Counted from the first letter of the stretch, positions 8,469-47,917 are shown. The stretch: 64,000 nucleotides of DNA from an uncultured Actinomycetes bacterium (GCA_963810945.1 CAWEPI010000008.1:6645-70644), one strand, 5' to 3'. Made by a program: numbers and translations. Notes: generated by a model from the sequence alone, not told the origin.

Positions 8469-8888
8469 CTACGCGGCATCGGGACGCGGCGGGGTCGGGT
8501 CCCAGGCGGGCGTGTCGGCCGCCGGTTCGGGCGGCAGGGGTTCGCTCGGCTCGGAGGTGGGAGACGGGCGAGGAACCGGCATCGCATCGGCACCGGGGAC
8601 GAACGTCATCTCGTGGGTCCCCGTCCCCACCTTGCGGACGGTCTGCAGCAACCAACCCCGCCTCCGGTGCACGTCGATCGCCGACTGACGGCCCATCCCC
8701 TTCGCGGGGGTCACGAGGGTGTGGGACGGCGCCGTCCAGTCGAAGCGCTCGTCGTTCCACGCATCCCGGAGCTGCTTGCGGCCCGCCCTGTCGCGCATCC
8801 AGTAGTTCGTGCCGCTCTCTTTGCTGCGTGGGTCCGGCACATCCTTCATGCCGGCCGAGCCGGCCCGGATCGTCCCGTCACTCGCCAT
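8469..8888 (-). CDS. Hypothetical protein with Pro-rich C-terminal tail
   Basis: 139-aa ORF with a protein-like globular part (TNYWMRDRAGRKQLRDAWNDERFDW) and no recognised family; fills the intergenic gap. Confidence 0.5.
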   Translation of the reverse strand: MASDGTIRAGSAGMKDVPDPRSKESGTNYWMRDRAGRKQLRDAWNDERFDWTAPSHTLVTPAKGMGRQSAIDVHRRRGWLLQTVRKVGTGTHEMTFVPGADAMPVPRPSPTSEPSEPLPPEPAADTPAWDPTPPRPDAA

Positions 8889-9016
8889 CGTTCCGAGGCC
8901 CCGGTCCTTCAGATCTCATCGTCGAGCCATGGCAGGCGGGCAGGGACGCGAGCCTGGCTCCCGCGAGGGACCGTGGGAACCCCCGGTAGTCAGCCGTCAG
9001 TGTGGTGGGGAACACG

Positions 9017-9111
9017 CTGCGCGCCCTGCCCGACTATCCGGAAGGATGCGCCCCACCTCCAGCGGTGCACATCCGCCGTTCGCATGACGAAACGACCCTC
9101 AGACGTCGGAG
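9017..9111 (+). repeat. Conserved intergenic element, copy 1
   Basis: 9022-9053 is identical (32 nt) to the reverse complement of 44455-44486; 9074-9091 is identical (18 nt) to the reverse complement of 44418-44435. Confidence 0.85.
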
Positions 9112-9141
9112 GCGGGTTTCCCGCGCGGATCACCACGATGA

Positions 9142-9170
9142 GGGCCGGGGCCGCTTCGCGGCCCCGGCCC
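9142..9170. terminator. GC-rich hairpin 3' of the Calx-beta gene
   Basis: Perfect 13-bp stem GGGCCGGGGCCGC / GCGGCCCCGGCCC; no clear U-tract. Confidence 0.55.
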
Positions 9171-9203
9171 GATGGTTCCTCCTCCCGGATACGTCTCGTG
9201 CGA

Positions 9204-10290
9204 TCACCCGAAGTTACGGATCACGCACACCGCGGTCGGGTCGCCGAGCGTCGCGCCCTTCGGGCTGAACAGGTGCAGGAAGAACGTCTGGTTCGGCTCG
9301 CGGACGGAGTCCCCCATGATCTTGACGTGGACCAGCTTGTGACCGCGTCCGGCCGGGATGGTGAGCGTCCCCGACGTCGCGACGTAGTCACGCCCGGCCT
9401 TGGCGGAGCCGTTGGCCGTCGCGAAGCGCACCGTGACGTCCTTCCCGCTCACCACGGAGAGGTAGACACGGAACTGCACCAGCAGGGTGCCCTTGCGGGG
9501 CTCCCGGATGCTGGTGTCCGCCACGTTGACCGTCGGCGGTGGGTCGTTGTCGGTGATCACGCCCTGGACCGTCGTCACGGGCACCGTGGAGTGCAGCGGG
9601 TTCGACAGCGTGATCGAGAACGACTCGCTGTTCTCGTCGACGAGATCGCCGATCACCTGCACGATGACGGTCTGCGGGGTCGCGTCTCCCGACGCCCACG
9701 TCAGGGTCCCGGGAGCGACGGCCTGGAAGTCCACGCCCCCCACCGCCGTACCGCCGAGTACCGCGTAGTCCACCGACATCCCCTCGGTGCTCGCGGCCGA
9801 CGGGGTCACCGTGAAGCTCAGCGGCGTGGTGCCGACGTCACCCTCGGTCACCGTCGCGCCCGTGAGCGTCAGGTGCGGTCGAGCCTTCACCGTCAGTGTC
9901 ACGTTGTCGGTCCCGGCGGACGTGTTGAGGAGTGCGTCCTCACCGCGCACCGACAGGACGTAGTCGCCCGTCGGCGACGGGGCCAGGAACGTGACCTCGA
10001 CGTCCTCGGTTACCTCGTTGAACGCACCGTCCACCGCCAGCATGTCCACCCACGCCCCGGTGCCGATCCGGTACTGGGCCGACGCGATCAGCGAGGCGCC
10101 GGTGGTGCGTGTCGTCGACCGTCGCCGTCAGGTGCACGTGGCCCGGCAGGTTGACGGGGTTCGGCGTGGCGAGCACGGCGCTCACCAGCGGCGCCTGCCC
10201 GTCGACCGCATGCGCAGCGGTCATCGGCAACAGCGCCATCACGAGCGCGGCGGCCGACGCCACCACCGCACCCCTCCCGAGTGCTCTCAT
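9204..10290 (-). CDS. Secreted Calx-beta domain protein, frameshifted near 10000-10050
   Basis: Signal peptide MRALGRGAVVASAAALVMALLPMTAAHA; two Calx-beta repeats (ATVTEGDVG...VDYAVLGGTAVGGVDF...GDLVDENSESFSITL; VRFATANGSAKAGRDY...GDSVREPNQTFFLHL). Confidence 0.85.
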
Positions 10291-42331: not shown

Positions 42332-44315
42332 GTGAGGATCTTCAAGAGTGCCGTTGCAGGCATGGTGTGCCTGCTCGCGCTTGCCGTGGGGAACATGCCG
42401 CCTGCGCAGGCTTCGCTGGCTCAGCCCAAGGTGGTGTCGGACAACCCGGCCGACACGACCCCGCAGGTCCTCATCACCGACACCTCGTATGACGTACGCG
42501 CCTTCGCGCAGGTCGGCAACACCGTCTACGCCGGTGGCCGGTTCGCGCAGGTGCAGGACCCCACCGGGACGACCACGTACGCCAGGCAGAACTTCGTCGC
42601 CTTCGACGCCCAGACGGGGGTCATCTCTCCGCTCAACCTGCAGTTCGACGGGATGGTCGGCGCCATCCAGGCGACCGCCGACGGGAGCGCGCTCTTCATC
42701 GCGGGCGCCTTCTCACATGTCAACGGCATCGTCCGCCGCGGGATCATGAAGTACGACCTGGTCAACAACCGGATCGACCCGACCTTCGCGCCGACGGGGA
42801 TGCGAACCGTGGGCGATATCAAGCTCGCCAACGGCGCCGTCATCGCGGCGGGGAACTTCCCGAAGATGCTGATGGCACTGGACCCGACGACCGGCGCGGA
42901 CACCGGCGCCATCAACATCACGGTCACCGGCGTGGTCGACCCGGCCAACGAGACCAAGATCCAGTACATCGCGGTCTCCCCCGACGGCACCCGGTTGGTG
43001 GCGACGGGCAACTTCACCACGGTCAACGGCGCGAGCCGCAGACGGGCCTTCGAGCTGAACCTCGGCGCGACCGCCACGCTCAGCACCTGGCACGCCCCTC
43101 GCTTCGACGTGAACTGCGTGGCGACCAGCAGGCTGATCAGTGCGCAGGGGGTGGACTTCTCCCCCGACGGCAGCTACTTCGTGATCGTCGCCACCGGAGG
43201 CCCGACCGGTACGAACGGGATCTGCGATGCCGCGGCACGGTTCGAAACCGCGAACGTCAGCGCCAACGCCCAGCCCACCTGGATCAACTGGACCGGCGGC
43301 GACACCCTCTACAGCGTGGCGGTCACCGGACCCGGCCGTGTACGTCGGCGGCCATCAGCGCTGGCTGGACAACCCCCTCGGTCACGACTCGGCCGGTGCC
43401 GGCGCGGTCTCCCGTCCGGGCATCGGAGCCATCGATCCGGTGACCGGCAAGGCGCTCCCCTGGAATCCCACCAAGTCCCGCAATCACGGCACCATGGTCC
43501 TCTACGCCACCCCGGCCGGGCTCTGGGTCGGCAGCGACGGCACCGAGTTCGGGCACGAACCCCACAACGGGATCGGCTTCGCCCCTCTGGATCCCGGCCC
43601 CGTGCCTGACCTCGACCGGCCCAACACGGTCATCGACTCGGGCCCGTCGGGCACCGTGACCGACACGTCGGCCACCTTCACCTTCTCGGCCTCCGAGCCC
43701 TCGACGTTCCTGTGCCGCCTCGACAGCGACGCGTACGCCCCGTGCACATCGCCGACGAGCTACACGAACCTCACGGCCGCCTCGCACACCTTCCAGGTGG
43801 CCGCCATCGACGGCTCCTATAACGAGGACTTCACCCCGGCGGTGCGAACCTGGACCGTCAGTGCCACGGCCAGCAACCTGATCGGGAACTCCGGATTCGA
43901 GGTGGACACGTCCGGCTGGAAGGGCGACAACACGGCCAACGCGGTGAACCGGGTCGCGGGTGGGAACTCGGGCAGCTGGGCCGCGGAGGTCTCGAACACC
44001 GCGGCCGGTGGAAGCTGCGGGCTCGACGACAAGCCGAGCTGGGTGAGCTTCACGCAGGCCGGTCCTTACACCTCGAGCATCTGGGCCCGCTCCGACACCG
44101 CCGGGCTCACGCTCAAGCTGCGCGTGCGCGAGTACCTGGGCGGCGTGCTCCAGGGGTCGGTCGTGAAGTCGATGGCGCTGACCACGTCCTGGCAACAGGT
44201 GACGTCGACCTACACGCCGATCTCGCCCGGATCGAGCCTCGACTTCGAGGCGTTCACGAGCAACACACCCGTCGGCGTCTGCTTCCAGGCCGACGACGCA
44301 TCCATCACCCACTAA
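42332..44315 (+). CDS. Secreted beta-propeller + Ig-like + CBM4/9-like carbohydrate-binding protein, frameshifted near 43325
   Basis: Signal peptide ...GNMPPAQA; blades VYAGGRF, LFIAGAF, VYVGGH, LWVGSD; Ig-like DTVIDSGP...YTNLTAASHTFQV; NLIGNSGFE...SWAAEV (CBM4/9-like). Confidence 0.78.
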
Positions 44316-44323
44316 GCCCGTGA

Positions 44324-44355
44324 GCCGCTCCCACCCCAGCGGGGGTGGGAGCGGC
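44324..44355. terminator. GC-rich hairpin 3' of the beta-propeller gene
   Basis: 14-bp stem GCCGCTCCCACCCC / GGGGTGGGAGCGGC. Confidence 0.55.
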
Positions 44356-44397
44356 GGGGCGGGGATGGGGCCACCTTCGTTCCGGGCGGATGCCTGA

Positions 44398-44491
44398 CTC
44401 CTACGTCTGCGGGTCCGTTCGTCATGCGAACGGCGCATGCGGGCCGCCGGGGTAGGGCGCATCCTTCCGGATAGTCGGGCAGGGCGTGCAG
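44398..44491 (-). repeat. Conserved intergenic element, copy 2
   Basis: Reverse complement matches 9017-9111 in three blocks (32-nt and 18-nt identical blocks plus ACCC-N-CAGACGT-N-GGAG). Confidence 0.85.
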
Positions 44492-44582: not shown

Positions 44583-45455
44583 CTACAGGGGCAGCGGCGT
44601 CGCGGTGGCGGCCTCGTTCGGAGCGGTGCCCGCGAGGCCGTACCTCTGCCAGATCGCCGCGCAGAACGAGTAGTGGTCGTAGCGGTGGCCGTCCTTGGTC
44701 CCGCCTGTGATCCCGGGACCGATCTCCGCCGCGTACAGCAGTTGATGCGTGCTCTCCGTGCTCTCGTCGAACGTCACGAAGACCGTGACCGACGGGTCCG
44801 CGGCGGTGATCACGCCGACGACGTGCGCCACCCACTTGTCCGCGAGGTTGATCTGGTTCGACCCGTGGTTCGTCCCGAAGTACGCCCGGCAGTCACCATG
44901 CGAGGGATAGGTGTGCGCGTTGTCGCAGTTGTTGGGAACGATGAAGCTGAACGACGGCAGCGCCTGGAGTTGCGCATCGGACGTGAGTGGGCGGTCGTTC
45001 GCCTTGCAGGACGAGTTCGCCCGGTAGGCGTAGGCGGGGTCATGCTTGTGGTCGTAGAGCTTGTCATCGCTGCCCGGGACGACGTTCGGTGAGGGGAACA
45101 CCCCGCAGTTGCCCGCCATCGACTCCTCGAGGTTCACCCAGCGCACGCCTTGGGTGTCGAACTGGTGGAACACGTTGTTCGAGACCGGCGTCGACGGGAG
45201 CTGCTCACCGGCGACCATCGCCCGATAGTCATGGGATGAGCTCTCGAAGCCGTGGTAGTTCGTGAACTGCTTGCCCCGGGCGAGCATCGCGTTCAGGAAC
45301 GGAGCGGCGCTCTTGCCGACGACGGCGCTCCGTTCGGTGTTCTCCAAGACGATGACGGCGATCTTCGGTCGTGGCGATGTCAGCGCCTGCGCCTGGACCG
45401 GCAGCAGGCCGCTCGCCACCAAGATCGCAGCTATCAGCAACGAGAACCTTCGCAC
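44583..45455 (-). CDS. Secreted phosphoesterase-family protein (acid phosphatase / phospholipase C-like)
   Basis: Signal peptide; IAVIVLEN, YDHKHDP, LPSFSFIVPNNCDNAH, VFVTFDES, YDHYS. Confidence 0.82.
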   Translation of the reverse strand: MRRFSLLIAAILVASGLLPVQAQALTSPRPKIAVIVLENTERSAVVGKSAAPFLNAMLARGKQFTNYHGFESSSHDYRAMVAGEQLPSTPVSNNVFHQFDTQGVRWVNLEESMAGNCGVFPSPNVVPGSDDKLYDHKHDPAYAYRANSSCKANDRPLTSDAQLQALPSFSFIVPNNCDNAHTYPSHGDCRAYFGTNHGSNQINLADKWVAHVVGVITAADPSVTVFVTFDESTESTHQLLYAAEIGPGITGGTKDGHRYDHYSFCAAIWQRYGLAGTAPNEAATATPLPL

Positions 45456-45500
45456 CCGTCCCCCTCGGGGGACACCCACAGTCGACGTCACTACTCCGAG

Positions 45501-46505
45501 TCAACGCGCTCTTCCTGCGCCGAGCTGGGACATGACGGCGTCGTGGAACCGCTCGAGCTGATGGAGCTCATCGCCCACCGGCCAGATGAGGACACGTTCA
45601 GCACCAGCGGCCTCGTACCGGGCGAGCTTGTCTACGCACTCGCTTGCTGAGCCCACGAGCAACCGCTCTCGGAGCTGCTCGGGTGGGCGACCGAGCGTAG
45701 GCGCGAGCACCTCGGTCACGACAGCGTCTGCGGCCGCCGCATCCTCGGTCAGGTGCAGGAACATCGTCGCGACCGCGTTGGGGAACCCCTGCGGGTCGAT
45801 CCCCTCTCGTCGCAGATGCCCGCTCAGGCGTCGGAGGGTCTCGCCGAACGCTTCCGGCGTCGTGTTGTAGCCGGAGGCCAGCCAACCGTCGGCGAGGCGT
45901 GCCACGCGCCGCAGGCCGACATCCGACCCCCAGCTCCCCAACCAGATCGGTGGTCCGCCCGGCTGGGTTGGGGCGGGGAGCAGATGCATCCCTTCCGTCG
46001 AGTAGAACGCACCCTCGAAGGGTTCGCTCGCCGGTCGCAGGAGCGCCCGAAGCGCGTGGACGGCCTCCTCGAACCTGGGCCACCGCTCCTCCCACGCGAT
46101 CCCGACCGCCCGATAGTCTCGCTCGGAAGAGCCCGGACCGACGCCGACGACGAGTTGGCCGCCCGAGAGCCGGTCGATCGCAGCCAGCGCCTTCGCGAGC
46201 AGACCCGGACCGCGCACGACGGGGAGTGCGATCGTCGTCGCGACCGTCATGGCGCCGATCGCCGGGAGTACCGAGGAGAGCGCCACGGGGCCGTCGAGCC
46301 ACGGCCGTGCGTACACGAGGTGATCGTTCGAGGTCAGCCACGTCAGGCCGATCCGGTCCGCGAGGCGTGCGTAATCGATCAGGTCGGTGATCGAGGCGGG
46401 CTCCTCGTCGCCCCAGGTCATCAACGGGAGATGCGCACCGAACTCGATCCGAGGAACCTCCGTTCCGGGTATCGGGACTCTATCCGATGTCTCCCGCACG
46501 CTCAT
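45501..46505 (-). CDS. LLM-class flavin-dependent oxidoreductase (luciferase-like)
   Basis: WLTSNDHL, LAKALAAIDRLSGG, GVGPG, PPIWLGS, VARLADGW. Confidence 0.88.
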   Translation of the reverse strand: MSVRETSDRVPIPGTEVPRIEFGAHLPLMTWGDEEPASITDLIDYARLADRIGLTWLTSNDHLVYARPWLDGPVALSSVLPAIGAMTVATTIALPVVRGPGLLAKALAAIDRLSGGQLVVGVGPGSSERDYRAVGIAWEERWPRFEEAVHALRALLRPASEPFEGAFYSTEGMHLLPAPTQPGGPPIWLGSWGSDVGLRRVARLADGWLASGYNTTPEAFGETLRRLSGHLRREGIDPQGFPNAVATMFLHLTEDAAAADAVVTEVLAPTLGRPPEQLRERLLVGSASECVDKLARYEAAGAERVLIWPVGDELHQLERFHDAVMSQLGAGRAR

Positions 46506-46633
46506 CGCTGCCTCAGCGCGGAGGGAGGAAGAGGCAAGAGCGCACCCCTCGGCGTCGTGGCTCGCGATGGGTGTCGATCTCCTGCCCCACCTGGAAGGTC
46601 CCCTCCGGGGTGGGCCCCGGGCGGCCCCGTCGA

Positions 46634-47344
46634 CTAGATCGCTTGAAGATCGGCGACGATCACACAGCGAAGGTCCGCGAATCGAACCGAGCTGTTCACG
46701 AGCCGTTCGTACGCGATACCGACCCGGTAGGCGAGGGGGTGGAAGAACAGGTACGCGGGCTTGGGCTCGATCATCTCGAGCGCGACGACACGGAACCTCG
46801 TGCGCGCCGCCAACTTGCGGAGCGTCTTGCGGTCATTGGCCCGGTACCGCGTGGGAAAGGTGTCCTCATGGGCCCTGTCGCGCCGTTCGTTGAACCAATC
46901 ATGGAACCGAGGAGGGGTGAGGGTTGCCCCGAGCGCGACGTAGTGGAAGCGGTTAGGGGTATGGAACAGGAAGTGAGCACCGGGCTTCATCACCCGGCGG
47001 ATCTCCCTGAACGTCGCGACGGGCCGGGCGAAGTGTTCCACGACGTACTTCGAGAAGACGAGGTCGAAGGTGCGATCGGCGAACGGGATGTGACAGAGGT
47101 CGGCGACGACCGCCTCATCCAGGTTCGGGTTCCCCCAGATCCCGACGTCGACGTCGACCCCGATCACCTTCTGGACGGCCTCGCGGTAGTCGTAGGGATA
47201 CGTCACACCTCGACCCGCACCGGCATCCAGGATCACCGCGTCCCTGCGCAGGTACCGCCGGATCCTCGTGTCGAACGCGAGGTGGTCGTCGACGTGGTCC
47301 GCGTAGTACCGGGCGTCGAGCCTGCGCACGGAACTCAATCCCAT
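46634..47344 (-). CDS. Class I SAM-dependent methyltransferase
   Basis: ILDAGAGRG, IPFADRTFDLVFS, EIRRVMKPGA; alternative start at 47398. Confidence 0.85.
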   Translation of the reverse strand: MGLSSVRRLDARYYADHVDDHLAFDTRIRRYLRRDAVILDAGAGRGVTYPYDYREAVQKVIGVDVDVGIWGNPNLDEAVVADLCHIPFADRTFDLVFSKYVVEHFARPVATFREIRRVMKPGAHFLFHTPNRFHYVALGATLTPPRFHDWFNERRDRAHEDTFPTRYRANDRKTLRKLAARTRFRVVALEMIEPKPAYLFFHPLAYRVGIAYERLVNSSVRFADLRCVIVADLQAI

Positions 47345-47844
47345 CGCACCGATCACGGCTGCGGTGATGAGACCTCGGACCATCAGTGGATCCGTCACGA
47401 CGTGCCCTCTCCAAGGGCCGTGCGGGCACCGATCAGCTCGAGCCTAGTCCCGCTTCGGGGCCGAGGGAAGAGGCGTCGCGTGGCGATGCCCAGCGGGCGC
47501 CGCGCCGGATCCGCGAAGACCGCAGCTCTGGTGGGATGCGAAGCCGTGGCTGAAGCCAGCTACGAATGGCTAGAGATCCTGTCAGCCGAAAGGCGGATGC
47601 GCCCGACCAGGGCTGAGTTCATCCTTTCGGCGTCGGGCAGGACGTGCGGCATTCACCCGGTCCGCCGAGGCGCCCAACGGCGAGGGGCTCTCCGGCAGGA
47701 CGGGCGCTGGCGTCCTGCCCGCCCATGCGTCCGCCGAGCACGGGATCAAGACGGCGACTGCCGTGCGCGATGACCTTGGCCCCACTACCGTGCGATTCAC
47801 CCGAGGCGACGTGCTCGAAGCATGTTCGTGTCGCCGGACCGCTG

Positions 47845-47917
47845 AGCTGGAGCGGGGAATCGAACCCCGGACCTCCTCCTTACCATGGAGGCGCTCTGCC
47901 GACTGAGCTACTCCAGC
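47845..47917 (-). tRNA. trnT: tRNA-Thr (GGU)
   Basis: GCTGGAGTAGCTCAGTCGGCAGAGCGCCTCCATGGTAAGGAGGAGGTCCGGGGTTCGATTCCCCGCTCCAGCT; TACCAT -10 at 47932-47937. Confidence 0.96.

Follow-up and report, generated by a model that had tools for sequence, protein, structure and literature searches.

A conserved, transcribed intergenic element, probably a folded non-coding RNA, in a narrow clade of uncultured soil Actinomycetes

An intergenic element of ~180 nt occurs three times in the window (the whole 64-kb stretch of DNA analysed here, from an uncultured soil actinobacterium). The element is real, conserved, transcribed and previously undescribed, and it is probably a folded RNA. We consider it fairly likely (roughly 75–80%) that its copies are members of a small family of structured RNAs, transcribed and conserved, that is restricted to one narrow clade of uncultured soil Actinomycetes and is neither protein-coding nor a transposable repeat. 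Features are described below in the orientation in which the conserved blocks were first read (plus strand for copy A, minus strand for copies B and C), here called the forward strand; the opposite strand is that of an orphan gene beside copy A and is called the gene's strand.

The sequence-only reading had singled out two copies of a ~95-nt element that share identical 32-nt and 18-nt blocks, and in this it was exact to the nucleotide. The 32-nt block CGCCCTGCCCGACTATCCGGAAGGATGCGCCC has two exact matches in the window, at 9022–9053 (plus) and 44455–44486 (minus), and the same two when up to three mismatches are allowed (shuffle expectation 0); the 18-nt block CGCCGTTCGCATGACGAA also has two, at 9074–9091 (plus) and 44418–44435 (minus), against 0.13 expected. 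The spacers between the blocks are indeed 20 nt in copy A and 19 nt in copy B, and both copies do face a GC hairpin and the stop codon of a secreted-protein gene (Calx-beta and CBM_4_9, respectively). The element itself is present, but its size was underestimated: similarity between A and B, which form the two longest inverted repeats in the window, begins ~85 nt further upstream at GGCGGGCAGGG (8936 and 44573, respectively). Since GGCGGGCAGGG is complementary to, and pairs with, CCCTGCCCG inside the 32-nt block, the unit is ~180 nt long. Along with this upstream half, a third copy and the linkage to the orphan gene had been missed.

Copy A (8937–9114; ~180 nt) is organized as a 15-pair helix (P1) around a ~65-nt variable domain, followed by a conserved core. 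Arm a of P1 (CGGGCAGGGACGCGAG, 8937–8952) pairs with arm b (CTGCGCGCCCTGCCCG, 9017–9032), and the domain between them (8953–9016) contains local hairpins such as TCCC-GCGA-GGGA; it can hardly be aligned between A and B or across lineages, though hairpins occur there in every copy. Next come a junction (ACT) and hairpin H2 (9035–9048, within ACTATCC-GGAA-GGATG, 9033–9048). This is the GNRA-capped stem of the earlier description (ATCC-GGAA-GGAT), and its loop is GGAA or GAAA in all ten aligned sequences; the loop-closing pair is, however, broken in one relative (L023), and the 3' arm can pair instead with CATCC 20 nt downstream. This alternative helix, Hii (GGATGCGC/GCACATCC; 9044–9051 with 9067–9074), carries a variable apical hairpin and has eight perfect pairs in L001 and L002. 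H2 and Hii are mutually exclusive because both use the same GGATG, part of an AAGGATG motif that is unchanged in 11 of 11 copies.

The remainder of the core (9075–9104) consists of H5 (GCC/GAC, 9075–9077 with 9102–9104) closing H4 (9078–9094), together with conserved ACCCTCA. H4 reads GTTCG-CATGA-CGAAAC in copy A, and in the L003 clade GGCGG-AAAGGAA-CCGCC takes its place; among strains the H4 stem is retained despite differences in its loop (CATGA, TATGA, TAGGA and others). Conserved ACCCTCAGACG lies downstream of H5/H4 and before a tail (9105–9122) with GGAGG and a small hairpin (GCGGG-TTT-CCCGC), where likeness to copy B stops. A GC hairpin (GCCGGGGCCGC-TTC-GCGGCCCCGGC, 9142–9170) then separates the element from the stop (9204) of the Calx-beta gene (9204–10049, minus). 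This hairpin is conserved in L001, L002 and L006, and in the latter two it directly adjoins the conserved core. In the L003 clade (L003:2650–2745, L017:2600–2650, L018:2600–2650), alternating runs of G and of C, GGGGGGTTCCCCCGTTTGGGGGGTC(A/C)CCCGTTNGGGGG, come after the element. Because they are conserved across different genomic contexts, they seem to belong to it in this clade.

Copy B (44572–44395, forward strand = minus) starts 10 nt past the TAG stop codon (44583–44585) of a phosphoesterase gene, is 73% identical to copy A and is convergent with the CBM_4_9 gene (43227–44315, plus), with a GC hairpin (44324–44355) between the copy and that gene's stop (44315). Copy B is also found, at 85% identity, in the closest relative (L020, same contig as L001), where the differences concentrate in the variable hairpins and leave the blocks almost unaltered; in two more distant relatives (L021 and L022) it is not present 3' of the phosphoesterase gene. 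In L020, a PAP2/VTT gene lies upstream of the phosphoesterase, while in the window (44583–47398, minus) the phosphoesterase gene shares its direction with methyltransferase and luciferase-like monooxygenase genes, and copies C and B, in the same orientation as each other, flank this block of three. A second 139-aa ORF near copy B (44673–45092, plus) was considered as a relative of the orphan gene and rejected as unrelated.

Both copies of the earlier description are real, but a third, diverged copy was overlooked. Copy C (47721–47568, forward strand = minus) is detected by a profile of all homologues (nhmmer E = 7.6e-15), 120 nt past a tRNA gene (47845–47917, minus) and ~175 nt ahead of the methyltransferase gene (46634–47398, minus). 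It retains P1, AAGGATG and GGATG/CATCC, while the distal part with H4 and CAGACG is degenerate. Its arm a has an alternative pairing with the nearer CGTCCTGCC (47703–47695). Among DNA metagenomes, strain variants comprise H4 loop variants and a truncated B-like locus, with no new changes in P1. The truncated locus is seen in rhizosphere metagenome contigs of runs X5 and X7 (over window 44381–44488) that contain the core and GGGCAGGGCGTG and then GGGGACAGCAAGGGAGGACATGATGCGCC. On the window's plus strand, GGGGACAGCAAGGGAGGACATGATGCGCC is a ribosome-binding site with a start codon, and it replaces the variable domain and the phosphoesterase 3' end.

The family is new, apparently low in copy number and confined to a narrow clade. 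No known riboswitch or SRP consensus had been recognized in the element, and Rfam searches agree: Rfam 15 (4227 models) at gathering thresholds returned only three tRNAs across the whole window, and at E ≤ 10 the best scores at both loci were 12–21 bits against thresholds of 35–126 bits, mostly for flanking hairpins. In a strict pattern scan of 185,579 species genomes and JGI metagenomes, the sole true match was L010 (same contig as L002), a single copy in a related MAG, and no other true copy was found; the remaining pattern matches were due to chance and were without the second block. The same scan of viral contigs gave 0 copies, BLASTN against plasmids and phages gave no match, and a full-text literature search with the block sequences returned unrelated papers only. 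Copy number appears low from the counts of three in the 64-kb window and, by strict pattern, one in the related MAG.

The orphan 139-aa gene (8469–8888, minus) adjoins the element in relatives without exception: the element lies directly 5' of an orphan-gene homologue in every fetched locus (L001–L006, L017–L019, L023–L025), a pairing that extends over seven related metagenomic lineages, while the neighbour on the far side varies (Calx-beta, BNR_2 with a 74-aa ORF, a DUF6174 fragment, a 163-aa ORF). Homologues of the gene form 12 clusters among 5.8 billion proteins. Nearly all originate from soil or rhizosphere metagenomes, those of Danish soil (ENA ERZ250395xx) among them, and one is in a MAG annotated as 'uncultured Actinomycetes bacterium'. 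Two real representatives emerged when 1.84 billion cluster representatives were searched with a profile; two extra matches were rejected as low-complexity artefacts. From its sequence the ORF looks like a real gene, with GC3 of 0.88, tail indels that stay in frame and many invariant residues, although the excess of third-position changes is only mild. The core of the predicted protein is basic and rich in Trp (…PDPRS.ESGTNYWMRD.AGRKQL.D.WNDERFDW…), and its Pro-rich tail has PPRPD at the end. It had no match in Pfam (E ≤ 5), NCBIfam, PADLOC or a PDB sequence search, and its AlphaFold model (modest confidence, pLDDT 60) had no Foldseek match in the PDB at E ≤ 0.001.

Between P1 and the gene start, a linker (8889–8936, minus) carries the conserved motifs CGACGATG and CTGAAGGACC(AGGAGG), which are kept across distant lineages (the window, L001, L017 and L018). 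In all A-type loci, the gene start with its ribosome-binding site is 25–50 nt downstream of the element on the gene's strand, and a start is placed likewise in the truncated B-like locus. At 8897–8905 the window reads ggccccggtcc, while L001, L017, L018 and a metatranscriptome contig of 99% identity have ggccTccTggtcc instead; this difference costs the orphan gene its AGGAGG ribosome-binding site and is probably an indel of the long-read assembly. L017 and L018 (2840–3000 in each) have ~130 extra bases between element and gene, comprising a remnant second copy of the P1 arm and linker and a short ATGATG-initiated ORF in a frame not common to both loci, which suggests past tandem duplication or recombination.

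Transcription, which the sequence-only reading had named as a check alongside covariation, is indicated by element-bearing contigs from five independent soil metatranscriptome samples, which are unstranded, low in depth and could include DNA. Copy A was found in four samples (X1/X2, X18/X19 and X22/X23, each filed twice, and X24), and the B type in X25. In X1, a 470-nt contig at 99% identity (8819–9287) extends without a break from the 3' end of the Calx-beta gene, across hairpin and element, into the orphan gene, while the small run X18 recovered only elements, 8932–9082 (A) and an isolated 184-nt contig over copy C (47568–47735), with flanks uncovered.

Compensatory base-pair changes are likewise present. 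The comparison covered ten distinct aligned homologues from ~6 lineages, plus copy C; the core is conserved among homologues and the flanks are unalignable. P1 contains GC↔AU switches at three columns (22-107, 25-105 and 26-104) with changes on both sides, and the covariation score was reached by 0 of 500 shuffles. Folding energies of the core were indistinguishable from those of shuffled sequences on either strand (z = −2.0 to +1.7), so support for a folded RNA comes from sequence comparison.

The same comparison bears on the strand. Paired cells were more frequent on the gene's strand than on the forward strand in P1 (95% vs 89%), H5 (97% vs 83%) and Hii (82% vs 71%), while H2 was better paired on the forward strand (94% vs 67%). 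With P1, Hii and H5 combined, the gene's strand gave 90.9% pairing and a covariation score of 0.164 (highest slid control 0.084), compared with 82.9% and 0.084 (highest slid control 0.118) on the forward strand; replacing Hii with H2 raised the forward-strand values to 89.4% and 0.131 (highest slid control 0.135). Neither forward-strand model stands out, since the slid controls exceed both scores. RNAalifold, given no structure by hand, predicted −28.1 kcal/mol with 39 pairs (9 compensatory) on the gene's strand and −25.6 kcal/mol with 29 pairs (6 compensatory) on the forward strand. All intermediates at the three switching P1 columns are A·C on the forward strand, which is G·U on the gene's strand. 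On the latter, L023 completes a G-C → G·U → A-U series in P1, and a strain variant of copy C likewise has G·U there. The wobble tally in helices common to both models (P1 and H5) is ~7:3, which is not significant alone and comes from few lineages. The conserved core is richer in G than in C on the gene's strand. Pair statistics, RNAalifold, composition and gene linkage lean toward the gene's strand, while H2, the hairpin past the element and the settings of B and C point to the forward strand; taken together, the gene's strand is somewhat more probable as the functional one.

The interpretation that we rank first, though at rather less than even odds, casts the element as a 5' leader RNA that acts in cis on the orphan gene, and B and C as orphan paralogues. 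Copy A on the window's minus strand would then be a ~230-nt leader that controls expression of the orphan gene in cis, reading from the hairpin of the upstream gene into the core (ACGUCUGAGG, H5/H4, Hii and the invariant CAUCCUU), then P1 with its variable insert, then a 40–50-nt linker carrying the ribosome-binding site, and finally the AUG. The mutually exclusive H2 and Hii, with their common GGAUG/CAUCC, could serve as the switching parts, the trigger might be a ligand, a protein or temperature, and the purine-rich ribosome-binding region has a candidate pairing partner in CAUCCUUCC, which is invariant and rich in pyrimidines. Duplexes of CAUCCUUCC with ribosome-binding regions were, however, not above those in shuffled leaders (17–70% of which pair at least as well, depending on lineage). 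CAUCCUU is complementary to ribosome-binding sites, but because it pairs with the actual leaders no better than with shuffled ones, sequestration of the Shine–Dalgarno sequence is offered only as a hypothesis. Copies B and C would be paralogues whose downstream gene was lost or never existed.

A leader role is consistent with gene linkage that stays constant although the far-side neighbour changes, with the conserved linker motifs, with the unbroken X1 contig that reaches the orphan gene and with the B-like locus of X5 and X7, where the core is followed on the leader strand by AAGGGAGGACATGATG, a ribosome-binding site and start codon. Conserved structure with covariation, as expected of a riboswitch or leader, is found in the ten sequences from ~6 lineages, and, provided that the RNA is made from the minus strand, every A-type copy has a 5'-UTR position. 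This position does not suit B and C, which are without a downstream gene, B running antisense into the phosphoesterase 3' end and C toward an antisense tRNA. The blocks of B are nonetheless kept despite turnover of its hairpins, a C-like RNA occurs as an isolated contig, and the GNRA loop and H2 are far better on the forward strand, all of which argue against a leader. The metabolic or transport gene theme typical of riboswitches is also lacking, as the only associated gene is the orphan. Furthermore, leader transcription would need read-through or processing, since in L002 and L006 hairpin and core adjoin, with no room for a promoter.

The main rival is a family of sibling small RNAs on the forward strand (A plus; B and C minus), a possibility that we regard as doubtful. 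Such RNAs would be ~180–230 nt long, stand-alone or 3'UTR-derived, and end at the GC hairpins; B would serve as 3'UTR to the phosphoesterase mRNA, and A would be transcribed divergently from the orphan gene. Either pyrimidine-rich RNA targets or a protein, perhaps the orphan 139-aa product, might bind to their purine-rich motifs (GGAAGGAUG in the GNRA hairpin, GGAGG and the AAAGGAA/UAGGA loops). The H2 loop stays GGAA/GAAA with the pairing advantage noted above, T→C and C→T changes in L023 preserve C-G and U·G pairs on the forward strand, and the loops on that strand are A-rich. A strong hairpin lies past the element in every context (abutting the core in L002 and L006), and in the L003 clade a G/C-run hairpin is followed by GTTT with no convergent gene close by. 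The start of B just past the phosphoesterase stop codon, the co-directional arrangement of B and C with an operon (tRNA – C – methyltransferase – luciferase-like – phosphoesterase – B) and the element-sized isolated contigs of X18 over A and C also suit small RNAs. Against this, P1, H5 and Hii pair less well on the forward strand, the covariation score there is below the slid controls, all intermediates at the switching P1 columns are A·C, and the core has C>G. Pattern scans of both strands found neither a sigma-70-like promoter nor a hairpin with a U-tract as terminator, the signals of a stand-alone small RNA, although this test is a loose one in high-GC Actinobacteria. In particular, the 40–50 nt between the orphan-gene start and P1 contain no promoter-like site and no conserved TANNNT, and the hairpins are without a U-tail and, in A and B, explicable as terminators of the convergent genes.

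Explanations that require no functional RNA fare worse. The REP/MITE-like alternative raised in the sequence-only reading, in which the copies would be miniature repeats (REP-, MITE- or BIME-like) or recombination or single-stranded DNA hairpin sites with the orphan protein as cognate enzyme, has become decidedly improbable. Three intergenic copies within 40 kb, near stop codons or hairpins, one of them always beside a small orphan protein (compare RAYT/REP), are in keeping with a DNA element, and the mixed-strand wobble evidence is what would be expected without selection on either RNA strand. However, the sole long inverted repeat (P1; 8937–8952/9017–9032) is internal, with ~80 nt of conserved core outside it, and thus terminal inverted repeats are absent; no target-site duplication is visible by eye at the borders of A, B or C, of which the right one is fuzzy, and no site lacking the insertion turned up. 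The copies show old divergence (A vs B 73%), unlike recent insertions, which would be nearly identical. Strict pattern scans found one copy in a related MAG and none in the other species genomes, JGI metagenomes or viral contigs, and BLASTN found none in plasmids or phages. Family, sequence and Foldseek searches found no HUH/Y1 (IS200-like) transposase signature or other family match in the orphan protein. The GC↔AU switches and the pairing-preserving replacement of hairpins also argue for a folded single strand. A further alternative is a double-stranded promoter and operator region of the orphan gene with ATCC-N4-GGAT and GTTCG-N5-CGAAC as transcription-factor sites. The fixed place upstream of the gene and the short palindromes in the two most conserved blocks are suggestive of such sites, yet in the L003 clade GTTCG/CGAAC is swapped for an unrelated GGCGG/CCGCC palindrome, and the ATCC/GGAT symmetry is lost there and in L017 and L023. 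With P1 arms that co-vary 65 nt apart, copies B and C that have no gene to regulate and an absence of promoter-like hexamers, we consider an operator very unlikely. A small protein-coding gene or its remnant is scarcely credible: open frames of 30–70 codons occur on either strand, as throughout DNA of 69% GC, but the homologues keep no single reading frame, and there is no conserved start codon with a ribosome-binding site. The difference between the 19- and 20-nt spacers, on which the case against protein-level conservation had been built, is a weak argument on its own, because two T's at 8900/8902 are missing in metatranscriptome contigs and a relative. The non-coding conclusion itself holds, since 1-nt indels within the conserved core separate copies and lineages in Illumina-based contigs as well and the frames of A and B differ.

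If the proposed RNA family is confirmed, it would add an undescribed structured RNA from a lineage known only by soil metagenomes, coupled to a protein family without detectable relatives, and could provide an entry point to regulation in uncultured Actinobacteria. The competing helices at the invariant AAGGAUG/CAUCCUU would represent a concrete, testable switch. More speculatively, and with little probability in our estimation, the element and the orphan protein may constitute a new RNA-protein module, with either the folded core or the purine-rich GGA-type motifs as the binding site of the protein (for autoregulation, or in a small RNP with B and C), or the element may be a new riboswitch class for an unidentified signal. 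Its wider impact is limited by narrow distribution, apparently low copy number and the absence of a functional hint.

The element belongs to a known general kind of RNA element, and its resemblances to described systems differ in extent. The motif UCC-GGAA-GGA(A/U)GC resembles the GGAA-capped apex of helix 8 in SRP (4.5S) RNA; this is resemblance and not membership, since there is no Rfam SRP match even at E ≤ 10, the element has three copies and its remainder is unrelated. Like REP/BIME elements with their RAYTs and like MITEs, it is a repeated, intergenic, hairpin-forming sequence, often past stop codons and in one case by a small conserved protein, but its length of ~180 nt, internal inverted repeat, apparently few copies, which are old and diverged, and lack of an HUH/Y1 transposase signature set it apart. 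Gram-positives and Actinobacteria have sibling or 3'UTR-derived small RNAs, for example 6C RNA, with conserved motifs in their loops. These share with the element several intergenic or 3'UTR paralogues, a length of ~180 nt, a GC hairpin at the end, presence in (meta)transcriptomes and short conserved motifs complementary or similar to ribosome-binding sites. In contrast to them, the element matches no Rfam small RNA, has no recognizable promoter or U-tailed terminator and has one copy tightly tied to the start of a protein gene. Orphan cis-regulatory RNA motifs and riboswitch candidates have been found 5' of genes of unknown function in comparative-genomics surveys of the Weinberg/Breaker type and are catalogued in Rfam. 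From these the element differs in having no Rfam match, a single orphan gene rather than a pathway, no suggested ligand and two of three window copies without a downstream gene. Like them, however, it combines multiple helices, conserved junction nucleotides, variable peripheral hairpins and compensatory changes with two mutually exclusive helices and a fixed place 5' of one gene family.
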